Counted from the stretch's first letter, positions 7,063 to 21,349 are shown. The stretch: 28,374 bases of DNA from Polyangiales bacterium (GCA_036277895.1 DASUME010000162.1:1-28374), one strand, 5' to 3'. Made by a program: numbers and translations. The notes: generated by a model not told the origin, from the sequence alone.

Positions 7063-7989
7063 ATGTCGAGCAAGCTGGTTCGGTTCGCGTACTTCGGTCT
7101 GCCACTCGGTGCGCTGGCGCTCGCGCGCGCCGGCTTCACGCCGCACTTGATCGTGCTCGGGCACACGGACGCGCCGGGGGCGCGGCGCGTGCGCAAGCTG
7201 CCGAGTCGGCTGCTCGAGCGCCCCGACCTCCGCGACGCGCACGTGCAGCGCTCGATCCGCGACGCCGGCGCCGACGCGCTGCTGTGCTGGTTCTATCCCA
7301 AGCAGGTGCCGCGGGGCTTGCTCGACGCGTTCCCGCGCGGGGCGTTCGGCACCCATCCGTCGTTGCTGCCGCGCTGGCGCGGACCCGACCCTTACTTCTG
7401 GGCGATCTACGAGGACGACCGCGAGACCGGCGTCAGCCTGCACCGGCTGGAGGCGGACTACGACACGGGCGCCGTGATCGCGCAGGAGGCGCTCGCGATC
7501 GATCCGCGCGAGCACGCGTTCCGGCTCGCCAAGCGGCTCGACCGGCCGGCGCTGCGGCTGCTCGTCGACTGCGCGCGCCGCCTGTCGAACGGCGAGCCGT
7601 TGCATGGGCGCGCGCAGCCTGCGGAGGGCGTGACGCTGGCGCCGAAGCCGGAGCCCGAGCTGCTCGAGCTCGACTGGGAGGCCCCGGCCGCGCAGGTCGT
7701 ACGGCTCGTGCGCGCCGCGGCACCCTACCCCGGCGCGAGCTGCGAGCTCGGCAGCGAGGTGGTCGACGTGCTGGAGGCAGAGGTCTACGGCGGTGCTCTG
7801 CCGCGCGCGCTCGAGCCTCGTGATGCCGTCTGGACGCCCGACGGTTTGGTGGTCTGCGCCGGCGACGCAGGGGTGCTGGTCCGGCGCGTGCGCACGGAGC
7901 GCGACGTGCTCCTGCATGGAAGCGAGCTTACGCGGCTGTTTCCGGGGGGATTGACCCAGGTACACTTCGGTCCCAAGGACCCGTCGTGA
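7063..7989 (+). CDS. Formyltransferase family protein (Fmt/ArnA-N-like, probably not the initiator-tRNA Fmt)
   Basis: THPSLLPRWRGPDP and GVSLHRLEADYDTGAVIAQ folate-binding motifs, plus a C-terminal domain (LDWEAPAAQVVRLVRAAAPYPGA). Confidence 0.85.
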   Translation: MSSKLVRFAYFGLPLGALALARAGFTPHLIVLGHTDAPGARRVRKLPSRLLERPDLRDAHVQRSIRDAGADALLCWFYPKQVPRGLLDAFPRGAFGTHPSLLPRWRGPDPYFWAIYEDDRETGVSLHRLEADYDTGAVIAQEALAIDPREHAFRLAKRLDRPALRLLVDCARRLSNGEPLHGRAQPAEGVTLAPKPEPELLELDWEAPAAQVVRLVRAAAPYPGASCELGSEVVDVLEAEVYGGALPRALEPRDAVWTPDGLVVCAGDAGVLVRRVRTERDVLLHGSELTRLFPGGLTQVHFGPKDPS

Positions 7990-9023
7990 GCTCGCCCGTC
8001 CCCGTGTTGCTGCGCCCCGACAACTTCACGCCTCCCACGCGTACGCCGTGGGGCGGGACGCGGCTGTCGCGCTCGTACAAGGCGCCCTACGTGGCGCGAG
8101 ACATCGTCATCGGTGAGTCTTGGGAGATCTCGGTGGAGCCCGACTTCCCGGGTGCCCTCGAGGACGGGCGCGCGCTGACGGCGTACCTCGGCTCCGCGCC
8201 GCACGCGATCCTCGGCGACGAAGCCGCGCGTGGGCGCACCGGCACCGCGCTGCTGGTGAAGCTGATCGACACCGACGGCCCGCTGAGCGTGCAGATCCAC
8301 CCGAGCGACGACTACGCGGGCCTGGCCGCCGACGAGTGCGGCAAGCCGGAGAGCTGGTACATCGTCGATCGGGAGCCCGGCGCCGGCCTGTACCTCGGCT
8401 TCCAGCGCGGCGTCTCGCGCGCGCAGATCGAACAGGCGCTCCGCGAGGGCGGCTCGCTGGAGCCCCTGCTGCGCTTCGTGCCGGTCGAGCCCGGGGACTT
8501 CTTCCTGATCGACGCCGGCACGCCGCACGCGATCGGGCCTGGCCTGACGCTGGTCGAGCCGCAGCACGTGATCCCGGGGCGCCGCGGCGTGACGTATCGC
8601 TACTGGGACTGGAACCGCCGCTACGACGCGCGCGGGGTCGAGGACGCGTCGGGCGAGCCGCGCGCGCTGCACGTCGAGCACGCGCTGGCGGTCACGCGCT
8701 GGCGTGCGGTGCAGGAAGACGGCTTCGTCGAGAGCATCCGGGTGCGGGCGCCCCTGCTCTCCGCGGGTCCGGCCCAGCTGACGGTGCTGGCCGGGGACGG
8801 CGGGCTCGCGAGCGAGTGGCTCCACGTGGCGAGGCTGACCGGCACCGGGCGCTGCCGGCTGCCAGCGCTCGATCGCTTGCAGGGGCTGACCGTGCTCGCC
8901 GGCACGGTCGAGGTCGGAGGGCTGCGAGTGGAGGCCGGCCGGTCCGCGGTGGTGCCCGCCCAGCTGCAGGGGAGCGAAGTCACGCTGCACGGCGCCCACG
9001 CCATCGTCTCCGCCGTCGCTTGA
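7986..9023 (+). CDS. manA: Type I phosphomannose isomerase-like cupin
   Basis: PWGG, LLVKLID, LSVQIHP, KPESWY and AGTPHAIG metal-binding motifs; GTGA overlap with the upstream gene. Confidence 0.8.
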   Translation: MSSPVPVLLRPDNFTPPTRTPWGGTRLSRSYKAPYVARDIVIGESWEISVEPDFPGALEDGRALTAYLGSAPHAILGDEAARGRTGTALLVKLIDTDGPLSVQIHPSDDYAGLAADECGKPESWYIVDREPGAGLYLGFQRGVSRAQIEQALREGGSLEPLLRFVPVEPGDFFLIDAGTPHAIGPGLTLVEPQHVIPGRRGVTYRYWDWNRRYDARGVEDASGEPRALHVEHALAVTRWRAVQEDGFVESIRVRAPLLSAGPAQLTVLAGDGGLASEWLHVARLTGTGRCRLPALDRLQGLTVLAGTVEVGGLRVEAGRSAVVPAQLQGSEVTLHGAHAIVSAVA

Positions 9024-9057
9024 CGCGATCGCGCCAGCTTGCAACATAGGCGACCGC

Positions 9058-9807
9058 ATGAGCGCCTCGCATATGGACCATCCGCAGCGGAGCCCCAACC
9101 CGCGCATCTCGATCGTGATCCCGGTCTACAACGAGGAAGCCATCCTCGAAGCCGCGGTCAAGGATCTGCTCGACCGGCTGACCACCCACTTCGAGTTCCC
9201 GTTCGAGCTGATCTTGGCCGAGAACGGCTCGAGGGATCAGACGGTGGCGCTCGCACAGCAGCTGGCCGAGCGCTTCCCCGAGGTGCGCACGTTCAGCCTG
9301 GGCGAGCCAAACTACGGCAAGGCGCTCAAGCGCGGCATCCTCGAGGCGCGCGGCGAGATCGTGATCTGCGACGAGATCGATCTGTGCGACACGGACTTCT
9401 ACTCGCGTGCGCTGGCGCTGCTCGACTCGTACGAGGCCGACCTGGTGGTGGGCAGCAAGGTGCTCGACTCGTCGAGCGACGAGCGGCCGTTCCTGCGCCA
9501 CTTCGCGACCATCGTGATCAACGGCATGCTGCGCGTCTCGCTCGGCTTCAAGGGCACGGACACGCACGGCCTGAAGGCATTCCGGCGCGCGGCCGTGGTG
9601 CCGGTGGTCGAGCGCTGCATCGTCGACAAGGACTTGTTCGCGAGCGAGCTTGTGATCCGCGCCGAGCGCAGTCAGACCGTGCAGATCAAGGAGATCCCGG
9701 TGCGCGTGCTGGAGAAGCGCCCGCCCTCGATCCACCTGTTCCGGCGCGTGCCCAACGTGCTCAAGGGGATCGCGCGGCTGGTGGTGGCGATCCGGATCAA
9801 GGGATGA
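9058..9807 (+). CDS. Glycosyltransferase family 2 (DPM1/ArnC/GtrB-like polyprenyl-phosphate sugar transferase)
   Basis: ISIVIPVYNEE, ENGSRDQT, NYGKALKRG, DLVVGS, DTHGLKAFRR. Confidence 0.88.
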   Translation: MSASHMDHPQRSPNPRISIVIPVYNEEAILEAAVKDLLDRLTTHFEFPFELILAENGSRDQTVALAQQLAERFPEVRTFSLGEPNYGKALKRGILEARGEIVICDEIDLCDTDFYSRALALLDSYEADLVVGSKVLDSSSDERPFLRHFATIVINGMLRVSLGFKGTDTHGLKAFRRAAVVPVVERCIVDKDLFASELVIRAERSQTVQIKEIPVRVLEKRPPSIHLFRRVPNVLKGIARLVVAIRIKG

Positions 9808-10727
9808 AGCTGGCCGCCGTCTCGGTCGACATCGACGAGATCGACAACTACGCGGCCATCTACGGGCTCAGCGGCGCACTGGATGTGTCGCTGACCGCGG
9901 TCTACGACAAGGCGCTGCCCCGGCTCGGGGCACTGTTCGCCGAGCTCGACGTCCCGTGCACGTTCTTCGCGATCGGTCGCGACCTGACGCGCGCAGAGAA
10001 CGTGGCCCAGCTGCGCGCGCTGCACGCGGCCGGCCACGAGATCGCCAACCACTCGCTCAACCACTACTACGATCTCACGCGCCGCGATCGCAACACGCAG
10101 CAGCGTGAGGTACGCGGCGGTGCGGACGCGATCGAGGCGGCCGTGGGCGCGCGGCCGGTCGGCTTTCGGGCGCCGGGCTACACGATCACCGATCAGCTGT
10201 TCGAGGTGCTGGCGGGCGAGGCGGTGCGCTACGACTCCAGCGTCTTCCCCTGCCCGCCCTACTACCTGGCGAAGGCGGCCGCGATCGGCCTGATCAAGGC
10301 GCGTGGGCGGCAGAGCCGCAGTGTGGTCGACGATCCGCGCGTGCTGAGCGCGCCCGCGGAGCCTTACTATGTCGGCAGACCTTACTATCGCCGCGGCGCG
10401 GGGCTGCGCGAGTTCCCGATCGGCGTCAGCGGCGACTGGAGCATGCGCCTGCCGTACATCGGCACCACCGTCGCGCTCGCGGGCGAACGCGGCGCACGCT
10501 GGCTGACCCGGCTGGCGTCACGCTCGTTCGTGAACCTGGAGCTGCACGGGATCGATCTCTCGGACGCGCACGAAGACGGGCTGCGCGGGCTCGTGCCGTA
10601 CCAGCAAGACCTGCGGCGCAGCGCGGCCGAGAAGCGCCTCGCGTTGGCGTCTGCGCTGAGCGAGCTGAAGCGCCAGGGCTACACCTTCGTGACGCTCGCC
10701 GAGGCCACGCGCCGCCTCGCGGCTTGA
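9804..10727 (+). CDS. Polysaccharide deacetylase (NodB homology, CE4), 307 aa
   Basis: ATG at 9804 overlaps the GT2 stop (ATGA); SVDIDE, TFFAIG, GHEIANHSLNH, GFRAPGY, YDSS motifs. It is the C-terminal part of ORF 9039..10727. Confidence 0.9.
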   Translation: MKLAAVSVDIDEIDNYAAIYGLSGALDVSLTAVYDKALPRLGALFAELDVPCTFFAIGRDLTRAENVAQLRALHAAGHEIANHSLNHYYDLTRRDRNTQQREVRGGADAIEAAVGARPVGFRAPGYTITDQLFEVLAGEAVRYDSSVFPCPPYYLAKAAAIGLIKARGRQSRSVVDDPRVLSAPAEPYYVGRPYYRRGAGLREFPIGVSGDWSMRLPYIGTTVALAGERGARWLTRLASRSFVNLELHGIDLSDAHEDGLRGLVPYQQDLRRSAAEKRLALASALSELKRQGYTFVTLAEATRRLAA

Positions 10728-10757
10728 GGGGAAGATCGGCGCGGCGCAGAGCGTAAG

Positions 10758-12161
10758 GTGGCCCGCATGATCGACCCGGCGATCCTGGAGCGCATCGGCG
10801 ACGCAGCGGTGCCGCAGCGCGGGATCGCGGGGCACGTGCTGCCGCCCGACTCGCTGCCGGGGGTGACGGGCCTTCGCGAGACGGTTCGCAGCGTGATCGG
10901 TCCGCTGCGATCGGGCGCCGACTTCTACGCGCGCGATCGGGCGCGCTACGGTGAGATCTACCGCGGCATGTTCGCGGGGCAGCCCACGGTGTTCGTGTGG
11001 CACCCGGAGCAGGTGCAGAAGCTGCTGCGCAACGAAGACGGCGCGTGGTCCGCGGGGCTCGGCTGGAGCGAGCTGGTGTTCTCGCGCATGTACCCGCACG
11101 CGGGCAACAGCGGCGCGCTGATCGCGATGGACTTCGACGCCCACCGCGGTGCGCGCAAGCTGGTGCAGCACGCGTTCACGCCGCGCGCGCTCAAGGGCTA
11201 CCTGGAGCTCGCCGCCCCGCGCATCGACGCCGCGCTGGCGCGCTGGCTACGCGCCGGCCGCGTGCCGTTCAAGGCCGAAGCGCGGGTGTTGCTGAGCGAG
11301 GTCGCCAACGAGATCTTCACCGGCATCGGCTCGCTCGACGAGCGCGGGCGTATCGACCGCGCGGTGATGACGAGCTGGCGGGGCGTGATGGCGCTGAGCA
11401 CGCGCGCGTGGCTGAGCCCCACGCTGCGCCATGCGCGCCGCAGCTACGGCTTCCTGCTCGCGCTGTTCGAGTCGATGCTGCCCGCGCGACGCGAGCAGCC
11501 AGGGCGCGACCTGCTGAGCCAGCTGGCGCTGGGCGGCGCGGCCGACGGAACGGACGACGCCGCGATCGCGAAGCTGTTGGTGAGCATCATGATCACCGCC
11601 TACGACACCACCACGATGGCGGTGACGAGCATGGCGTACCTGCTCGCGCGCGAGCCCGCGTGGCAACAGCGGCTGCGCGACGAGGCGCGTCAGGTCGAGG
11701 TGCTCGACTGGGAGGGCCTCGCGCGGCTGGAGCAGCTGGAGTGGGCGTGGAAGGAGTCGCTGCGGCTGATGCCCGCAACCGGCCCCGTGCCGCGGCGCAC
11801 GCTGCGCGAGCTGGAGCTGCTCGGCCACCACCTGCAGCCCGGCACGTTCGCGACCGTGATGATCGGGCCGCACGGGCGCTCCGACGCGTACTGGCCGAAC
11901 CCACTCGTGTTCGACCCGGAGCGCTTCGCACGCGGCGAAGATCGCGCGCGCAGCGGCAGCTTCGCGCCGTTCGGCGGTGGCCCGCACGCGTGCATCGGTC
12001 AGCAGCTGGCGACGCTCGAAGCCAAGCTCGTGTTCCACCGCCTGCTCACCCGCACGCGCTTCGCGCTCGTGCGCGACAACGGCCTGCGCCACGTCTACGC
12101 GCCCTTCGGTGTGGCCGCGGGCAAGGTCGAGCTCGCGCTCACGCCGCTCGCTTCGCCTTGA
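10758..12161 (+). CDS. Cytochrome P450
   Basis: I-helix AYDTTT, ExxR (ESLR), DPERF, heme ligand FGGGPHACIG; start may be ATG 10767. Confidence 0.96.
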   Translation: MARMIDPAILERIGDAAVPQRGIAGHVLPPDSLPGVTGLRETVRSVIGPLRSGADFYARDRARYGEIYRGMFAGQPTVFVWHPEQVQKLLRNEDGAWSAGLGWSELVFSRMYPHAGNSGALIAMDFDAHRGARKLVQHAFTPRALKGYLELAAPRIDAALARWLRAGRVPFKAEARVLLSEVANEIFTGIGSLDERGRIDRAVMTSWRGVMALSTRAWLSPTLRHARRSYGFLLALFESMLPARREQPGRDLLSQLALGGAADGTDDAAIAKLLVSIMITAYDTTTMAVTSMAYLLAREPAWQQRLRDEARQVEVLDWEGLARLEQLEWAWKESLRLMPATGPVPRRTLRELELLGHHLQPGTFATVMIGPHGRSDAYWPNPLVFDPERFARGEDRARSGSFAPFGGGPHACIGQQLATLEAKLVFHRLLTRTRFALVRDNGLRHVYAPFGVAAGKVELALTPLASP

Positions 12162-13002
12162 CCAGCAGCGCGTGCAGGAGCTCGGTCGACAGGCCGTGCA
12201 GCACCAGGCGGTAGCCGGCGCGCAGCGTGGTCAACGGCACCATCGGATGCTTGTTGTTGGCGAGGGCCACGTGCGTGCTGGTGCCCAGGATGCGCGCGAC
12301 GTAGAGCGCGATCGTCTCGTCCAGCTGCAGCGAGTTGGACGAACGCCAGAAGTCGTGGTCGGTCAGGAACAGCTGGTAGAGCGGCGTGTACAGCTCGATC
12401 GCGCTCTCCAGGTCCACGAAGTTGGTCAGCCGATCCGGGAACGGCGCGAAGGCCGGCGGCTGGTCACTGATCGCGCTGAAGTCGATCTGTTCCGGCTTGC
12501 CGAGCTCCTTGCCCGCCGCGAGCAGCTTGCGATTCAGCTCGATCACGAAGTTGAACAGGTTCAAGTCGTGCTGCAGGAACAGGTCGTCCTTCACGTCGTC
12601 GAGGTACACCGGCTTGAGCGGCTTGGTCGCGACCTCGACGCCGGAGTTGTCGGCGATGAAGCGCAGGATCTCGGAGCCGAGGTGGAAGTGCCGCATCACC
12701 AGCAAGTTGGCCTGGGGCGTCATGAAGGTCTTCATGTTCCACGCCAGCAGCTGGTGGAGCAGACCACTCGAGGCCACGTGCGGCGTCACCGTCTTCAGCA
12801 GCTGGAAGGCGGCGATCAGGCTGCGCGCGAACGGACGCGTCAGCGGGAGGATGAACTGGCGGTTGCGCGAGCTGACGTCCTCCAGCCACGCGCGCTTTGC
12901 GTTGGACTCCATGGGCACGCTCTGGTCGAGGTAGAGCGCCAGCCACGGGCTCGGGTCGCGCGGATCGTGCTCCATCGCGAGGAAGTCGGTTCGTTGGCTC
13001 AT
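12139..13002 (-). CDS. Hypothetical protein coupled to the KAS III-HDO gene, 287 aa
   Basis: ATG at 13002 overlaps the upstream stop (ATGA). Protein-like composition from MSQRTDFLAMEHDPRDPSPWLALYLDQS onward. No family recognised with certainty (possibly DUF6999-like, from memory). Confidence 0.85.
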   Translation of the reverse strand: MSQRTDFLAMEHDPRDPSPWLALYLDQSVPMESNAKRAWLEDVSSRNRQFILPLTRPFARSLIAAFQLLKTVTPHVASSGLLHQLLAWNMKTFMTPQANLLVMRHFHLGSEILRFIADNSGVEVATKPLKPVYLDDVKDDLFLQHDLNLFNFVIELNRKLLAAGKELGKPEQIDFSAISDQPPAFAPFPDRLTNFVDLESAIELYTPLYQLFLTDHDFWRSSNSLQLDETIALYVARILGTSTHVALANNKHPMVPLTTLRAGYRLVLHGLSTELLHALLVKAKRAA

Positions 13003-14834
13003 GAGACCTCGATTTGTTCGAACTGCAGCAGGTAGAGCATGGCGGTCGCGCGGGCGGTGGCGAGGATCTGCGCGGCGTGCCGGCCCTGTTCGTCGTAGGC
13101 GAGCACCAGCTCCACGGCGCGTAGCCAGCGGCTGAGGTGCGCCTGGTCGTTCTCGCCGTGGTAGCCGAGGAAGCGCGTGCGCTCCGCGGGCAAGCCGAGC
13201 TGGCGCCGTAGCGCGGGCAACAGCTGCGGGATCACGCGCTGGCCCGTGCCTTCGATGATGTAGATCGCGCCCAGCAGATCGATCGGATTCGAGCGCTCGG
13301 CGCGCGCGAACATGAATGCGCTCAGCGCGTCGCCGCCCGCGCTGCGCGTCAGCTGATCGAGCGCGAGCTCGCCGCCGGCGTCGCGATAGTCCGCGAACAG
13401 GATCTGGTAGTCCTCGCGCTCGTCGCCGGCGTGCTCGCGGATCAGCGGCACCAGGTCCGCGAACGGCGCCTGCACGTGGTCCGCGGCGCGCGTCATCCAC
13501 TGGCTTCCGACGCGGACCTGCGGAATCCACACCCTCATCCAGGCGAGGTAGTCCTCGCGCGTGAAGCTACCGCGCGCGATCTTGCGCACCAGCGGCGTGC
13601 GGCGCAGCCGCGACTGGTAGTCGTGCCAGACCTCCGCCAGCCCGGCGAGCAGCGAGGCGAGCCTGGGATCACCCTGCACCTCGTGCGGCGGCGCGATGGT
13701 GCCCTGCCCAGCGCTGCCCGCGACGACCGTGAACTGTGCGAAAGAGACGGTGAAGCGCCCCGACTCGGGCACGAAGCAGAGCACCGTCTGGCCCGGCTCC
13801 AGCTTGCGCTCCCGCTGCAGGTCGCGCAGCAGCAGGAACAACGACGCGCTGCCCGTGTTGCCGCGGTGCTCCAGGTTCGAGAACCAGCGCTCGCGGGGGA
13901 TCAGGAAGCCGGCCTTCGTCATCAGGTCTTCGATCAGCGGCGCGAACTTCGCGGACGAGTAGTGGCACAGGAAGTGGTCGACCTTGCGCACGTCGATGCG
14001 CTCGCGCCGGATCAAGCCGACGTACTCGTGGATGCCGAGCTCGAACAGGCGCGGCAACAGCCGGATGTCCTGGCGCAACAGGAACGCACCGTCTTGCTCT
14101 GCCTCGGCGAGCGACGGGTAGTCGAGGTAGCTCGGATGCGCGGGCGAGCCGCCGCCGATCTGCATGCAGACCGGATGGTCACCGCTGAACGAGCGCAGGT
14201 GCAGCCAGTCGAGCCGCAGCGACAAGCCCTGCGCGCTCGGCTCTCGTCCGAGCAGACACGCGCCTGCGCCATCCGACAACATCCAGCGCAAGAAGTGCGA
14301 GTCGAAGTCCGCGTGGTAGTCGCGCGGCGCGAAGCGCGAGCGCTTGAACATGCGCGACGGCATCTCGCTGGCCACCACCAGCGCGTGCTCGTGGCGGCCG
14401 AGCTGCACCATGCTCGCCGCGTGCTGGAGCGCGGCCACGCCGGACGCGCACACGCCCTGGTGGCTGCTGGTGTGCATCGGTCCCGCGCCGAGCTCCCCCT
14501 GCACCATGTTCGCGAAGCCCGGCATGGCCAGATCCCCGCCCGAGCTGCCCGTGCACAACACCGAGACCTGCTCGAGCGTCACGCCGGCGGCCGCGAGCGC
14601 GTCGCGAGCAGCTTCGGCTGCCATCTGGGCGGAAGAGTAAATCGTGCGTCCCTCCCGGTCGATCGCGTAGTGGCGCGTTCGAATCCCGTTGTCGGCCAGG
14701 ATTCGCCGCTTGATCCGGGCTGATCGCGCGTCGAGTGGCGCGATGAAGCCGTCGATCGCGTCGTTGTCGACCGGCTCGCCGGGCAGAAACATTCCGGTGC
14801 CGGTGAGGTATACGGAAGCGAAGTCGATCGCCAT
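12999..14834 (-). CDS. KAS III-type (DarB/StlD-like) ketosynthase fused to a C-terminal heme-oxygenase-like diiron (HDO) domain
   Basis: Residues 1 to about 370: triad C129 (GVCASG), H291 (LCHYSS), N326 (GNTGSAS) and FLRWMLSDGAGA. Residues about 390-611: helical domain with HAGDERED, YIIEG (E528) and HxxxDxxH (H559/D563/H566). Confidence 0.88.
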   Translation of the reverse strand: MAIDFASVYLTGTGMFLPGEPVDNDAIDGFIAPLDARSARIKRRILADNGIRTRHYAIDREGRTIYSSAQMAAEAARDALAAAGVTLEQVSVLCTGSSGGDLAMPGFANMVQGELGAGPMHTSSHQGVCASGVAALQHAASMVQLGRHEHALVVASEMPSRMFKRSRFAPRDYHADFDSHFLRWMLSDGAGACLLGREPSAQGLSLRLDWLHLRSFSGDHPVCMQIGGGSPAHPSYLDYPSLAEAEQDGAFLLRQDIRLLPRLFELGIHEYVGLIRRERIDVRKVDHFLCHYSSAKFAPLIEDLMTKAGFLIPRERWFSNLEHRGNTGSASLFLLLRDLQRERKLEPGQTVLCFVPESGRFTVSFAQFTVVAGSAGQGTIAPPHEVQGDPRLASLLAGLAEVWHDYQSRLRRTPLVRKIARGSFTREDYLAWMRVWIPQVRVGSQWMTRAADHVQAPFADLVPLIREHAGDEREDYQILFADYRDAGGELALDQLTRSAGGDALSAFMFARAERSNPIDLLGAIYIIEGTGQRVIPQLLPALRRQLGLPAERTRFLGYHGENDQAHLSRWLRAVELVLAYDEQGRHAAQILATARATAMLYLLQFEQIEVS

Positions 14835-14873
14835 GCAGGCAGTAGGTAGACGCAGCCCCGCCTGCGGCGCCTG

Positions 14874-16812: not shown

Positions 16813-16911
16813 TCGCCCGCTCGTAGCCCAGATCGCGGAATCTCACCAGTCAAAGGGAAGTGACTGGTGAGTTCATGCGCGACCACGCCAGTGGCTGCTA
16901 GGGTTGGTCCC

Positions 16912-18015
16912 GTGAAACGGTCTTCGGTAGTCGTGATCGCGCTCGCTCTGGTCGCCGTGTTGGCGGGCGCTTGGTACATGTTCTGGCCCCACACCTCGCT
17001 GCCGGTGGATCCGCTGGCGGCGGTGCCGGCAGATTCCTACGGCGTGGCGCACATCCGAGTGGACCGCGTGCTCGCCTCGGACGCCTGGAAGCGGCTGATC
17101 GTCGAGCGTGGGCAAGCCAAGGGCATCGAGCGTGTGCAGGTGCTGTGTGGGTTCAATCCGCTCGATCGGATCAAGGAGCTGACGGTGTTCGCGCGCCCGG
17201 CGCCGGGCGGCGGCCTCCCGAAGCTCGCGTTCGCGGCGCGCGGCGAGCTCAACCACCAGGAGCTGCTCGACTGCGTGAAGAAGTTCACGGGCGGCGATGA
17301 CTCGGCGCTCACGCGTGAGGACATCGAGGGCATCCCCACCGTGCAGAGCAAGAAGGGCAGCTCGCGCGCGGCCTTCATCGGGCGCGACGGCATCGTGGGC
17401 GGCGATGCAGAGAGTGTGGCGGCCGTGATCCACACCGTGCTGCAGAAGGCGCCCAGCCTGAGCGGCGATCTGATGATGAAGCAGCTCTACGCGGAGCTGG
17501 AGCAGGGCAGCGACATCACGCTGGTGAGCCGCCTGCCCGAGGAAGCCAAGCCGATGATCCGGCAGCTGGCGACCGTGGCCGGGCCGAAGGTGGAGCTGCT
17601 GGAGGAGATCAAGCTGTTCGGCGTCACGGTGGTGACCAGCTCGGCGAAGCTCGCCGGCGGGATCACGCTGGTGACGGGCTCGACCGCGGAGGCGAACGCG
17701 TTCGTCGAGCTCGGCAAGAACGCGATCGGGCGCCTGCTGACGATCCCCGGCATCGGCATGACGCCGGCCTACGGTGTACTGAAGACGGTGCAGAGCGAGG
17801 TGCGCGGCGATCGCGCGACGTTCAGCGGGCTGATCAAGGTGGCGTCCGTGGAGACGCTGCTCGAGCTCGCCCCCGCGCTGGAGGCGTTCGCGGGCGACAT
17901 GGTGCCGGGTGCCAAGCCCGATGCATCCAAGCCGACCCCTGCCCCTGCCCCTGCCCCGACGATCGAGCAGCTCCAACCGGAAGAGCCGCCGACGAAGAAG
18001 CGCAAGAAGGACTAA
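16912..18015 (+). CDS. Hypothetical membrane-anchored/exported protein, 367 aa
   Basis: N-terminal hydrophobic helix (VVVIALALVAVLAGAWYMFW), then a globular region and a Pro-rich/basic tail. Start GTG 16912 preferred over 16867. Confidence 0.75.
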   Translation: MKRSSVVVIALALVAVLAGAWYMFWPHTSLPVDPLAAVPADSYGVAHIRVDRVLASDAWKRLIVERGQAKGIERVQVLCGFNPLDRIKELTVFARPAPGGGLPKLAFAARGELNHQELLDCVKKFTGGDDSALTREDIEGIPTVQSKKGSSRAAFIGRDGIVGGDAESVAAVIHTVLQKAPSLSGDLMMKQLYAELEQGSDITLVSRLPEEAKPMIRQLATVAGPKVELLEEIKLFGVTVVTSSAKLAGGITLVTGSTAEANAFVELGKNAIGRLLTIPGIGMTPAYGVLKTVQSEVRGDRATFSGLIKVASVETLLELAPALEAFAGDMVPGAKPDASKPTPAPAPAPTIEQLQPEEPPTKKRKKD

Positions 18016-19238
18016 GCCTTCCGGCGCGCGATCTGCTCGACGAGACGCTGTGCGCGCTCGGGATCGACGCGGCACAGCGCGACCACACGCTCGCGGTCGA
18101 CCATCAGCTCGAAGCCCGCACGCTCGCGGCGCAGGCGTGACCAACCGGAGAGCGACAGGTCCAGCAAGGCGCCGAGGCCGAGCGCGAGCGCCCCGCTGAG
18201 CAGCAGCTCGCGATCGCCGCGCGCGATCGCGTCGCTCAGCCAGACCACACCGAGCAGCGCGCCCACCGCCAGCGCGAGCGCACCGAACAGCACATCGTAG
18301 GCGGGACGGCTCACCTCACGCAGCGCGAACTCGACGTCGCGCAGGGCGTACGAGGCGTCGCTGACGCGCAGCGTGCGCCCGAACAGGCGCGTCTCGCGGC
18401 GCACGTGCAGCGCGTTGCTCTCCAGCCGTACCCGACCGGTGCGCTCCAGGCCGAAGCCCCAGGCCAGCGTGCGTCCGACCGCGGAGAGGATCGCCCAGCC
18501 GACGAAGTACGACGCCACGCGCAGCGCGGAGATGCGGGGCAGCCGGCCCCACGCGCCCTTGACCTCGAAGCCGTCGATCTGCGGCAAGGCCTCGGTGCCG
18601 AGCGCGTGCTGCGCGACGGTGCGGATCCAGCTGTCCGGCGTGGTCTCCGCGAGCCGACCCAGCGCGACGCGTGCGCTCGGGCGGTCGAGCATGGTCAGCA
18701 CGTGGATGCGCAGCACGGCGCGTGCGCGATGGCCACCCAGCGACGGACCGTCCGACGGCGCGAGGATCACGCCCTCGAGCGCCTCGATCAGCGCGTCCTG
18801 TTGCTCCTCGGAGAGCAGGCCCTTCACGAAACGATATGGCGCGTACGGCGTCGAGAGCTCGAGCCAGTCGGCGTGGCGCGCGAAGCGCTCGAGCAGCTCG
18901 CGGCGCTCGGCGCTGCTCTCGTCCTCGAGCTTCTCCGCGAGACCACGCACCATGAACGCCGCCAACAACGCCCACTGCGCGGAGCGCTCGGGGCCGCGCT
19001 CGAGCAGCGCGATCACGTTGCCGTCGCCGGTCTCGGCCTGCGTGCGCACCAGCCGATGCGCGGCCGCGCGCACGCGCACCGCACGACGCCCGAGCGCCTT
19101 GAGCCCGCGCGCTTCCGCTTGCTCGCTCAGCATGTCGAAGCACAGCGCCGCCAGCTTTTGCCCGTGCGGATGCTGCTTCGCTTCCGAGAGCGAGCGATCG
19201 AGGGCCGCGATCGACGGCATGCTCAGGGACATCGTCAT
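18012..19238 (-). CDS. Hypothetical membrane protein
   Basis: Long ORF with protein-like composition; helical N-terminal region and three hydrophobic segments near the C-terminus. Confidence 0.75.
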   Translation of the reverse strand: MTMSLSMPSIAALDRSLSEAKQHPHGQKLAALCFDMLSEQAEARGLKALGRRAVRVRAAAHRLVRTQAETGDGNVIALLERGPERSAQWALLAAFMVRGLAEKLEDESSAERRELLERFARHADWLELSTPYAPYRFVKGLLSEEQQDALIEALEGVILAPSDGPSLGGHRARAVLRIHVLTMLDRPSARVALGRLAETTPDSWIRTVAQHALGTEALPQIDGFEVKGAWGRLPRISALRVASYFVGWAILSAVGRTLAWGFGLERTGRVRLESNALHVRRETRLFGRTLRVSDASYALRDVEFALREVSRPAYDVLFGALALAVGALLGVVWLSDAIARGDRELLLSGALALGLGALLDLSLSGWSRLRRERAGFELMVDRERVVALCRVDPERAQRLVEQIARRKA

Positions 19239-19263: not shown

Positions 19264-20232
19264 TCAGAGCAACGAAAGTTGCGAGTCGTGCGGCTCTGAT
19301 TCGAGCAGGTCCTTGGCGGCCCGGCGGCGAAAGCAAGCGTCGTCGATGCCGAGCGAGGTGCGCAGCGCGCTGCTGGCGATGACGAAGCGCTGCGTGACCG
19401 GGTCGTGGTAGCCGCTGACCTCGGCCAGGCTGTCGTCGTGGCCGCGGTAGAAGCGGTTCTGCCGCTCCATCGCCAGCTCGCGCACGTACTTGCCGACCAT
19501 CGAGGCGAGCGCGACCGGCAGGTGGTTGGCGTCCGCGTCGATCTCGAAGCGCACGTGGCCCACGCCCTGCACGTCGAAGGCGAGCGTGGGCCTCTGTGCG
19601 CGCGCGGGGCTCACGCCGCGCAGCGGGAAGTGCCGCATCCGGGCGATGTAGTTGCGGATGCCTCCGACCATGCCGCAGATCGCGCGCACGTCCTCCGGGC
19701 TGCGGGTGCGCGCGTCGAGCACCAGCCGCTCCATCAGCTCCAGGTCGACCTCGACGCGGCTCTGGCCCTTGCGCAGGCGGGTGTTGAGGGAGCCCGTGCA
19801 GGCGAGCGCGCTGCGCACATGGAGGGGCCGCAGGCCGGCTCTTGCGAGCTTACGCAGCACCTGGCGCCCGGCCTCGATGTCCCCGCCGAAGCAAGGGAGC
19901 GGGATGGACACTGACCAGCACTGGGGACGGGATCCCGCCGGACACGGCGTGCGCAGGGCCTCGGGGGCATCGAGCAACAAGGCCTCGAAGAGTGCGTCGA
20001 TGTCGGTGGGCAGCACGCCCGAGAGCTGCTCGATCAGCGCGAGCGCGAGGCCTTCTGCAAGCGCCATCTGACCGAAGCCGGCCGTGGCCTTGCTGTCGTC
20101 GATGCCCAGCGCGCGGCCGACCTCGGCGTGGTGCTCGGGGCGATAGCGCTTGAGCTCCAGGCTGGCGGCCGTGGTGACCAGCGGACCGAGCAGCGGCCCC
20201 AGCCCATTCTCGTCGACGCCCACGATGATCAC
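19264..20232 (-). CDS. Divergent RNase HII-like protein, 322 aa
   Basis: IIVGVDENGLGPLLGPLV, IDDSK, DADANHLPVALASMVGKYVRE, SGYHDPVT align to RNase HII motifs. GTG 20232 places the DE motif at the N-terminus. Confidence 0.72.
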   Translation of the reverse strand: MIIVGVDENGLGPLLGPLVTTAASLELKRYRPEHHAEVGRALGIDDSKATAGFGQMALAEGLALALIEQLSGVLPTDIDALFEALLLDAPEALRTPCPAGSRPQCWSVSIPLPCFGGDIEAGRQVLRKLARAGLRPLHVRSALACTGSLNTRLRKGQSRVEVDLELMERLVLDARTRSPEDVRAICGMVGGIRNYIARMRHFPLRGVSPARAQRPTLAFDVQGVGHVRFEIDADANHLPVALASMVGKYVRELAMERQNRFYRGHDDSLAEVSGYHDPVTQRFVIASSALRTSLGIDDACFRRRAAKDLLESEPHDSQLSLL

Positions 20233-20368
20233 GAGGGGCTGCCTATCATACCTCGCCTCACCTGCTGACTTTTTGCGCGGGCCCAGAGCGACAGACGCAG
20301 AACCGCTCGCTTTCCCCGGCCCCGCGAGTCGCGATACCATCGTTCCTTCGGGGGCGACGCACAGGCGA

Positions 20369-21349
20369 ATGGCGACCAAAGAAGGCGGACTGGTGGCGCG
20401 CTCCGTGCGCGAAGCCCTCGGCACGCTGATGTCGCCGCAGCTCTATTCACAGCTGGTGGCGCGCGCGCTGTCGAGCGCGCACCTGAGCGAGATCCCGGAG
20501 CAGGGCCGCGCGGTGGCGCAATGGATCCAGGGGCCGCTGTTGCGCGAGGTCGAGGTCGCGGCCGGCGCCGATGCGGCGGAGCTGGTGGCAGAGCAGCTGG
20601 CGCCGGTGGTCGCACACGCGAGCAACGAGGGGCGGCCGTCGATGCCGCGCGAGGAGCCGAGGCCGGGATCGGATCGCGCCGCCAAGCGTAAGAGCTCCGA
20701 TCGCGCGGCGATGCGCAGCGCGCCGTACGTTCGCGTGGCGTCGGATCGTGTGCGGCCACCGAGCGCGGAGAAAAATGCGCGTGTGCCTTCGGAGCCCGCG
20801 CAGCGGCCTGCGAAGAACCCGTTCGGCAGCGACATCCCCACGGGCCTGGTGTCCGCGCCGCCGCGTCGGCAGTCCGCGGAGACCACGCGCACGCAGCTGA
20901 CGGCGGAGCAGCTCGCCGCGATGAACCAGGCCGGCCACACCGCACGGCCCGCGGCGCCCGATCCCGAAGACCGGGAGCTACGGCGCGTGCTGTTGGCGTC
21001 GAATGCGCGGGGCTCGGTCGACTCGCTGCAGGGTTACCTGCAAGGCGTCGCGCGCGTGGCGCCGGTGGCGGACCTGGTCGGCCTGCTCGACGCGCTCGAC
21101 GACAAGACGCTGCGCGACCCGATCGTGCTCGTCGATTGCCAGCGCCCGACCGTTCACGCGACGAGCATCGCCGCGATCGGCGAGGACCTGCCCGCCGGCA
21201 CGACGATCGTGCTGTGGGGAGTGAGCGACGACACCTGGAGCCAGCTCGACCGTGACCGCGTCCCAAGCTGCCACTGGGTCCGCTGCTCCCACGAGGCCAC
21301 CCCCGGCGACGTCGGCGCGCTCGTGTCGATGCTGATCAGTCAGCGCTGA
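20369..21349 (+). CDS. Hypothetical protein: helical N-domain, Pro/Arg-rich linker, CheY-like C-domain, 326 aa
   Basis: ATG 20369 (MATKEGG...). The C-terminal alternating beta/alpha pattern RVLLAS / PIVLVD / TIVLWG resembles a receiver fold. Confidence 0.65.
   Translation: MATKEGGLVARSVREALGTLMSPQLYSQLVARALSSAHLSEIPEQGRAVAQWIQGPLLREVEVAAGADAAELVAEQLAPVVAHASNEGRPSMPREEPRPGSDRAAKRKSSDRAAMRSAPYVRVASDRVRPPSAEKNARVPSEPAQRPAKNPFGSDIPTGLVSAPPRRQSAETTRTQLTAEQLAAMNQAGHTARPAAPDPEDRELRRVLLASNARGSVDSLQGYLQGVARVAPVADLVGLLDALDDKTLRDPIVLVDCQRPTVHATSIAAIGEDLPAGTTIVLWGVSDDTWSQLDRDRVPSCHWVRCSHEATPGDVGALVSMLISQR

Follow-up and report, generated by a model that had tools for sequence, protein, structure and literature searches.

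A conserved gene cassette for a ketosynthase fused to a heme-oxygenase-like dimetal domain and a DUF6999 protein in a Polyangiales bacterium and other bacteria

The locus and the KS-HDO-DUF6999 cassette

In a stretch of 28,374 nucleotides from a Polyangiales bacterium (GCA_036277895.1, DASUME010000162.1:1-28374, in the following called the window), an open reading frame (ORF) encodes a ketosynthase (KS) of the ketoacyl-acyl carrier protein synthase III (KAS III) type that is fused to a C-terminal heme-oxygenase-like dimetal (HDO) domain. The KS-HDO gene is directly followed by a gene for a protein of the family DUF6999, and the two genes are coupled by an ATGA overlap, which contains the stop codon TGA of the fusion gene (12999-13001) and the start codon ATG of the DUF6999 gene (13000-13002). 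The features of the locus are compiled in Table 1. The original prediction, which had been made from the sequence of the window alone, had noted the complete KAS III triad, a helical domain with the pattern E...HxxxDxxH, and an ATGA overlap with a next gene of no recognisable function, and it had proposed a compact two-gene pathway with a condensation that is followed by a diiron oxidation. The genome assembly is a metagenome-assembled genome (MAG) of 990 contigs, which is 82% complete.

Table 1. Features of the KS-HDO-DUF6999 locus; positions are counted from the first nucleotide of the window.
Feature	Position	Strand	Characteristics and basis
KS-HDO fusion gene	12999..14834	-	611 aa plus stop, ATG start; ORF and translation, Pfam and NCBIfam matches, homologues of the same architecture
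KAS III (StlD/DarB-like) condensing domain	13719..14834	-	aa 1-372; C129/H291/N326; 5gk0, NF005293, tree
Variable inter-domain linker	13665..13718	-	about aa 373-390; unconserved, length-variable at alignment columns ~420-460
HDO domain	13002..13664	-	about aa 391-611; PF14518, AlphaFold2 model, Foldseek, invariant candidate ligands
DUF6999 partner gene	12139..13002	-	287 aa; PF22523; start overlaps the stop of the fusion gene
Cytochrome P450 gene	10758..12161	+	PF00067, E-value 1e-44; convergent with the DUF6999 gene, 3' ends overlap by 23 bp
Inserted block of P450, DUF6999 and KS-HDO genes	10728..14873		4.1 kb, between a polysaccharide deacetylase gene and bioA; synteny

The linkage of the genes was analyzed with 95 non-redundant loci, which were screened with purpose-built profiles. 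The loci stem from Pseudomonadota, Bacteroidota, Bacillota, Planctomycetota, Actinomycetota, and Myxococcota. Actinomycetota contributed 80 of them (Micromonosporaceae, Glycomyces, Actinospica, Trebonia, Microbacterium, Agromyces, Cellulomonas, and Demequina), and the non-actinobacterial loci include Lysobacter, Steroidobacter, Leeia, Ottowia, Burkholderiaceae, Paenibacillus, a Planctomycetota MAG, and Chitinophagaceae. In every locus with enough sequence the DUF6999 gene is directly preceded by KS and HDO; the truncated locus L051 contains HDO and DUF6999 only. Most loci encode KS and HDO as one fusion protein, an architecture shared by more than 3,500 full-length homologues, and the two are encoded by separate genes in the loci L084-L099 from Microbacterium, Agromyces, Cellulomonas, and Demequina. 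The linkage to the partner gene, which had been named as a check of the prediction, is thus present in the fused as well as in the split form.

The DUF6999 family comprises about 3,300 proteins, or 364 representatives at 50% identity, many of which are fragments. Its distribution is patchy. Within the phylum, 2 of 251 genomes had DUF6999, and the numbers were 7 of 41 for the family of Glycomyces and 2 of 61 for the family of Microbacterium. DUF6999 was detected neither in nine genomes of the same genus nor in 31 further genomes of the same order. These counts indicate that the cassette is accessory and that it has spread laterally. The analyses thus showed that KS-HDO-DUF6999 is a conserved, horizontally mobile biosynthetic cassette. 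The term two-gene, as used in the proposal of a compact pathway, applies to this conserved core only, because the core arrived here together with a P450 gene and travels with desaturase or hydroxylase genes elsewhere.

The domains of the fusion protein and the DUF6999 protein

The KS part of the fusion protein matches ACP_syn_III (aa 127-200, 33.0 bits) and ACP_syn_III_C (aa 277-353, 37.5 bits) above the gathering cut-offs of Pfam, and its best NCBIfam model is the StlD/DarB family NF005293 (E-value 5e-102). Among solved structures, the closest relative by sequence is StlD (5gk0) with an E-value of 4e-71 over aa 7-371; the values were about 1e-11 for FabH-type enzymes and 4e-07 for the OleA-type structure 3row. 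The predicted triad of C129, H291, and N326 turned out to be invariant in 16 homologues with 59-77% identity. In a phylogenetic tree the KS of the window pairs with a metagenomic KS at 80% identity, and the KS forms encoded by split genes nest among the fused actinobacterial ones. These results assign the domain to the KAS III thiolase fold and place it next to the StlD/DarB ketosynthases as a close sister.

The C-terminal domain matches Haem_oxygenas_2 (PF14518) at aa 482-600 with 43.1 bits, compared to a cut-off of 28.9. An AlphaFold2 model was obtained with a mean predicted local distance difference test (pLDDT) value of 94.7 and a predicted template modelling score (pTM) of 0.90. Foldseek placed this model, each time with a probability of 1.00, next to 3DDE with a template modelling (TM) score of 0.80, to CADD with 0.79-0.84, and to UndA with 0.70, and a TenA homologue was also among the nearest solved structures. 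The heme-oxygenase-like bundle that had been expected for this domain is therefore well modelled. 3DDE is a structural-genomics protein without an assigned function (PDB entry 3DDE), and it was also picked by sequence with a profile of the HDO domain (E-value 3e-07).

The residues H468, E472, D475, E528, H559, D563, and H566 are invariant in the 16 homologues, and the same result was obtained with 28 HDO domains. In the alignment with 3DDE, the glutamate of the second helix and the H-x3-D-x2-H motif of the third core helix line up. Of the six ligands that are usual in HDOs, three histidines and three carboxylates, E472, E528, H559, D563, and H566 are present, and the histidine of the usual E-x-x-H is D475. 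The predicted pattern E...HxxxDxxH is thus confirmed by invariant residues (E528, H559, D563, and H566), and it is refined by E472-x-x-D475. H468 is located one turn before the usual ligand position, and the candidate set may consist of two or three histidines together with four carboxylates. The candidate metal site is, in sequence, more carboxylate-rich than the sites of the HDOs studied so far. In addition, ten aromatic residues are invariant (W403, Y429, W432, W436, W446, Y483, Y525, Y558, W570, and Y601). Two further genes with PF14518 are present in the same genome, on the contigs C776 and C294 (loci L111 and L112), and the gene on C294 adjoins a weak P450-like match with 25% identity to the P450 of the window.

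The only Pfam match of the partner protein is PF22523, with an E-value of 3e-119 and 397.7 bits compared to a cut-off of 27, and it covers all of the profile positions 1-275 of 275. The gene of no recognisable function thus encodes a DUF6999 protein. No NCBIfam match and no sequence match among solved structures was found. The AlphaFold2 model (pLDDT 92.2, pTM 0.90) consists of twelve helices, and it was compared with four libraries. Foldseek yielded no match in the Protein Data Bank (best E-value 0.38), and VIA-align against 48,161 chains reached a best Z-score of 4.2, a value that helical proteins usually attain by chance already. A comparison with the clusters of the AlphaFold database retrieved the own family only, and a search by shape in the ESM Atlas gave a best TM score of 0.30. 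The protein has no membrane-spanning segment, and its maximum hydropathy is 1.25. According to the model, DUF6999 is a soluble, all-helical protein with an orphan fold. A feature search in the Atlas had retrieved penicillin-amidase fragments with a score of 0.94; this match was based on only 137 shared features, had no support from Pfam, and was taken as chance. A few matches to natural fusions of DUF6999 with other domains look like fragments or chimeric gene calls.

An alignment of 35 DUF6999 members with 24-84% identity revealed that R104, H105, P131, H145, D197, D228, and H269 are invariant, and that D146, E274, S224, and N119 are nearly invariant. Three histidines and four carboxylates, which are located on five different helices, resemble the ligands of a metal site. 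It is tempting to speculate that DUF6999 could be a new class of His/carboxylate metalloenzymes that, together with KS-HDO, would produce as yet unseen oxidised two-chain lipids in hundreds of bacterial species, which might be phenolic or quinone-like and act on membranes or as signals; as a whole this possibility is rather doubtful.

Relation to DarB-type pathways and proposed chemistry

Two publications describe a Claisen condensation and a Michael addition by which DarB, StlD, and BrtD convert a 3-oxoacyl and a 2-enoyl thioester into a carboxy-cyclohexanedione, which DarA and StlC aromatise with loss of CO2 (PMC6836626, PMC13748660). The cassette resembles these DarAB(C), StlCD, and BrtCD systems in that its KS is closest to StlD/DarB by profile, by solved structure, and by tree, and in that the Cys-His-Asn triad is kept. 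As in the brt cluster, a dedicated acyl carrier protein (ACP) is missing, and the KS of the cassette comes with a linked oxidising enzyme. It differs from DarAB(C) and StlCD by the absence of DarA; instead, the HDO is fused or adjacent to the KS and is always followed by DUF6999. As had been noted before, no gene for a DarA-like cyclase, an ACP, or an acyl-CoA ligase was found among the likely genes of the window, which were picked by codon bias and compared with Pfam and, for a subset of these genes, with NCBIfam, and the 4.1-kb insertion contains no DarA-like gene.

DarA was also looked for by way of a 302-aa gene that is conserved beside true DarB genes and matches no Pfam or NCBIfam model. 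The start of the encoded protein, which is a candidate for DarA, looks flavodoxin-like by eye. The possibility that DUF6999 is a hidden DarA was rejected, as a comparison of DUF6999 with this candidate by hhalign gave a probability of 0.16% and DUF6999 is all-helical. One Chitinophagaceae genome (G286, loci L016 and L136) contains a flexirubin-type dar cluster with a DarB over the cut-off, DarG, DarH, and the 302-aa DarA candidate as well as a KS-HDO-DUF6999 cassette, which indicates that the two systems are not redundant.

Small clusters with 'DarA-less' DarB homologues, the products of which are still to be discovered, are described for cyanobacteria in a review (Nat Prod Rep 2019, PMC6836626). 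They are like the cassette in combining a DarB-like KS with the absence of a neighbouring aromatase and in their small size; the available review text describes no HDO fusion and no DUF6999, and the comparison is one by description only. The HDO domain shares with the HDO oxidases and oxygenases UndA, BesC, SznF, RohS, and CADD, and with 3DDE, the heme-oxygenase-like fold, PF14518, the carboxylate of the second helix, and the motif H-x3-D-x2-H of the third helix, and it differs from them by the covalent fusion to a KS and by an altered motif in the first helix (see below). In the literature searched, neither a ketosynthase-HDO fusion architecture nor a characterised pathway or a published account of DUF6999 was found, in agreement with the earlier statement that the genes could not be assigned to a characterised pathway. 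The cassette was classed as a pathway of the DarB type in which the oxidising partner is another one and the third protein has an orphan fold.

From these similarities the following course of events is proposed. The KAS III domain would load a fatty-acyl thioester onto C129 and would probably join it head-to-head with a second fatty-acid-derived thioester. The predicted product is a carboxylated intermediate of the dialkyl-cyclohexanedione type. The fused HDO domain would bind this product, probably via the free carboxylate in the way UndA binds lauric acid, and would oxidise it with O2, most likely by oxidative decarboxylation and aromatisation in one step. It would thereby take the place of the missing DarA/StlC aromatase, and a dialkylresorcinol-like lipid would result. 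For HDOs without an extra carboxylate ligand, e.g., UndA, it has been described that the substrate carboxylate is bound at Fe1, which is followed by O2 addition and abstraction of an aliphatic hydrogen (PMC7848743). DUF6999, which is coupled and co-inherited, would be an obligatory third component and probably acts as a metal-dependent tailoring enzyme or as an assembly partner. Optional neighbours may decorate the product, i.e., the P450 at this locus and membrane fatty-acid desaturases or hydroxylases elsewhere. We estimate the probability of this proposal as a whole, DarB-type condensation followed by oxidative decarboxylation and aromatisation by the HDO with DUF6999 as a third component, to be roughly 45%. 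The predicted sequence of condensation and diiron oxidation that leads to a lipid-like metabolite was supported, and the checks of the fold, the linkage, and known pathways, each of which could have refuted it, failed to do so; the order of the steps, the identity of the metals as diiron, and the product class are parts that we infer.

Several observations weigh against this proposal. The KS misses the curated cut-offs of its families, with 341.7 bits versus 450 for NF005293 and 271.8 versus 550 for the DarB model NF053539, whereas true DarB genes reach 545-615 bits. In the KS tree, in which six Chitinophagaceae genes over the cut-off represented canonical DarB and the root is not reliable, one long branch with a support of 100/100 parts the KS of the cassettes from canonical DarB. 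Therefore, the reaction may differ from that of DarB, and a differing reaction is also argued for the DarA-less DarB homologues in the 2019 review (PMC6836626). The first core helix of the HDO domain contains E472-x-x-D475 where 3DDE has E-x-x-H, and therefore metal content and reactivity may be unusual. The DarA candidate, used as a single query, had no match in the own genome, which is 82% complete, so that a DarA elsewhere is possible. A complex prediction of the KS-HDO fusion with DUF6999 yielded a score of 0.00, which is under the mark and is evidence neither way. Lastly, all chemical steps, as well as the substrate, the metal content, and the product, are proposed ones.

The atypical ligand set with E-x-x-D could also mean that the HDO is an unconventional one, which might be CADD-like, i.e., self-sacrificial or engaged in the supply of an aromatic building block, or a non-catalytic domain with a structural or regulatory role. 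CADD ranks among the two nearest solved structures, and the ten invariant aromatic residues could form a path for radical transfer. However, the seven candidate ligands are invariant across phyla, which argues for an active metal site, the fusion points to a hand-over of the KS product, and a dedicated operon is not readily reconciled with a single-turnover enzyme. An unconventional role of this kind is thus considered very unlikely.

The original prediction had listed an olefin or a ketone among the possible products. In such a route, an OleA-like Claisen condensation would yield a 2-alkyl-3-oxo acid, which the HDO would decarboxylate in the way of UndA to a long-chain olefin or ketone. The OleA and UndA/UndB systems would resemble the cassette in that a thiolase-fold enzyme joins acyl chains head-to-head and an HDO or an enzyme of the desaturase family carries out a decarboxylation with O2. 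Olefin synthases of the UndB type belong to the FA_desaturase family, members of which occur as neighbours of the cassette (see below). The solved structures that resemble the HDO domain include UndA, and UndA-type HDOs bind fatty-acid carboxylates (PMC7848743). However, the KS is distant from OleA, no OleBCD genes are present, and the HDO domain is nearer to 3DDE and CADD than to UndA. Moreover, the formation of a ketone from a 3-oxo acid would need no oxidase; 3-oxo acids decarboxylate spontaneously. We regard this route as quite unlikely. Since the resemblance of the KS to StlD/DarB far exceeds that to OleA, a ring product of the DarB type is more probable than an olefin or a ketone.

Products of DarB/StlD enzymes, i.e., dialkylresorcinols, cyclohexanediones, and stilbenes, are signals, antibiotics, and drugs, e.g., tapinarof, and the HDO enzymes form a young family, the chemistry of which is unusual. 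A conserved natural KS-HDO fusion would probably reveal a new mechanism of aromatisation or oxidation, the always-present DUF6999 a new metal-binding fold, and the cassette as such a widespread, so far uncharacterised lipid-like metabolite. As the cassette is small (2.7 kb, or 4.1 kb with the P450 gene) and needs no dedicated carrier protein, it is directly testable by heterologous expression. New in the present analysis are the mapping of the insertion, the refutation of a link to bioA, the association with two-component systems in actinomycetes, the fold test of DUF6999 with four libraries, its lack of homology to the DarA candidate, the E-x-x-D variant, and the coexistence with a true dar cluster.

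Neighbouring genes and the insertion site

The genes beyond the KS-HDO-DUF6999 core differ among the loci. In 9 of the 15 non-actinobacterial loci, cassette-specific genes for an FA_desaturase and/or an FA_hydroxylase are located directly upstream, often with overlapping stop and start codons, and the desaturases are 41-52% identical among themselves. In the actinobacterial loci, genes for a membrane histidine kinase (DUF5931, HisKA_3, and HATPase) and a LuxR-type response regulator are adjacent in 36-37 of 80 cases, among the loci L020-L083 (e.g., L061:5400-8000). This gene pair lies mostly upstream of the cassette, with the end of the regulator gene 18-76 bp before the KS start in most cases, and in a few cases downstream; it looks like a regulator pair dedicated to the cassette, and its architecture is presumably that of the DesK/DesR-type membrane sensors or of LiaS/LiaR. 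In a Burkholderiales-type MAG (L019:9290-13280), a desaturase gene, the cassette, and, with an overlap of stop and start codons, a gene for a prokaryotic diacylglycerol kinase follow one another in this order, within a region of envelope-glycan genes. In the genetic model organism Caulobacter vibrioides, FA_desaturase and FA_hydroxylase were matched in addition to DUF6999, PF14518, and a DarB-like KS below the threshold, which suggests that it may carry the extended cassette. The own genome has many desaturase and hydroxylase genes elsewhere, the best of which is only about 32% identical to the cassette type, and thus it carries a minimal version of the cassette.

We infer from the desaturase, hydroxylase, and two-component neighbours that the membrane or the envelope could be the site of action. 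These neighbours would also fit a remodelling of membrane lipids, in which the KS would build an unusual acyl chain (branched, keto, or mid-chain-joined), HDO and DUF6999 would oxidise it, and the chain would end up in membrane lipids, so that the envelope could be adjusted under the control of membrane-sensing regulators. The coupling of the desaturase and hydroxylase genes to the cassette, the frequent kinase and regulator genes, and the diacylglycerol kinase gene after one cassette are in favour of this idea. However, the patchy distribution (2/251, 7/41, and 2/61 genomes) fits an accessory metabolite better than a core function of the membrane, neither an acyltransferase nor an ACP is conserved with the cassette, and the nearest relatives of the KS are the StlD/DarB enzymes, which form rings. 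Lipid remodelling as the function of the cassette therefore appears unlikely.

At the locus of the window, the gene upstream of KS-HDO is a true bioA (TIGR00508, 563 bits compared to a cut-off of 405), which lies on the same strand at a distance of 39 bp. This raised the question of a link to biotin synthesis, in which the KAS III would act like BioZ and provide a pimelate precursor for the adjacent bioA, with the help of the P450; BioZ is an enzyme of the KAS III type, and BioI belongs to the P450s. The synteny with four genomes of the same genus (L126-L129) contradicts this. They share an order of genes for an M74 peptidase, RNase HII, two proteins of unknown function, RNase H, and BioA, followed convergently by genes for the deacetylase, the glycosyltransferase family 2 (GT2) protein, the phosphomannose isomerase (PMI)-like protein, and the formyltransferase, and by a PilZ gene. 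All flanking genes are syntenic with the window, and the P450, DUF6999, and KS-HDO genes are absent between bioA and the deacetylase gene in all four genomes, in which the gap amounts to about 45 bp in three cases and to about 80 bp in L129. As bioA abuts the deacetylase operon in the four relatives, the three genes represent a 4.1-kb insertion, and bioA is a native neighbour. Furthermore, no bio genes were found beside the cassette in the other loci examined, and the KS belongs with StlD/DarB. A role in biotin synthesis is thus extremely improbable. The sister genomes without the insertion would be natural controls for the analysis of the cassette.

The KS-HDO/DUF6999 pair lies at the 3' end of the unit of RNase H and bioA, and the P450 gene is located at the 3' end of the unit from the formyltransferase to the deacetylase gene. 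At third codon positions, the GC content is the same for the inserted genes as for the host, and searches for traces of the insertion mechanism revealed no meaningful flanking repeats around the block, so that the transfer is either old or came from a similar donor. Promoter-like or terminator-like sites were not found in these searches. Relatives of the P450 elsewhere in the genus are only 45-50% identical. Its gene adjoins the cassette in no other fetched locus, and thus the P450 is not a conserved partner; it is possibly a lineage-specific tailoring enzyme.

The window has a GC content of about 70%, and sigma-54, an HPr kinase, and a PilZ protein are also encoded in it. The RpoN sequence shares 88% identity with its counterpart from a MAG named 'Myxococcales bacterium' and 74% with the one from Sandaracinus amylolyticus, which places the host among the Myxococcota as an uncultured, Polyangiales-like bacterium. 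Three sizeable ORFs of the window have no Pfam match (16867-18015 on the plus strand, 18012-19238 on the minus strand, and 20150-21349 on the plus strand). The first two also lack an NCBIfam match, and both are syntenic in genomes of the same genus. On the other side of the insertion, the genes for the formyltransferase, the PMI-like cupin, the GT2 glycosyltransferase, and the polysaccharide deacetylase form a four-gene operon (7063-10727, plus strand). Its order is kept in the four genomes of the same genus, and it resembles the formylate-transfer-deformylate logic of ArnA, ArnC, and ArnD.

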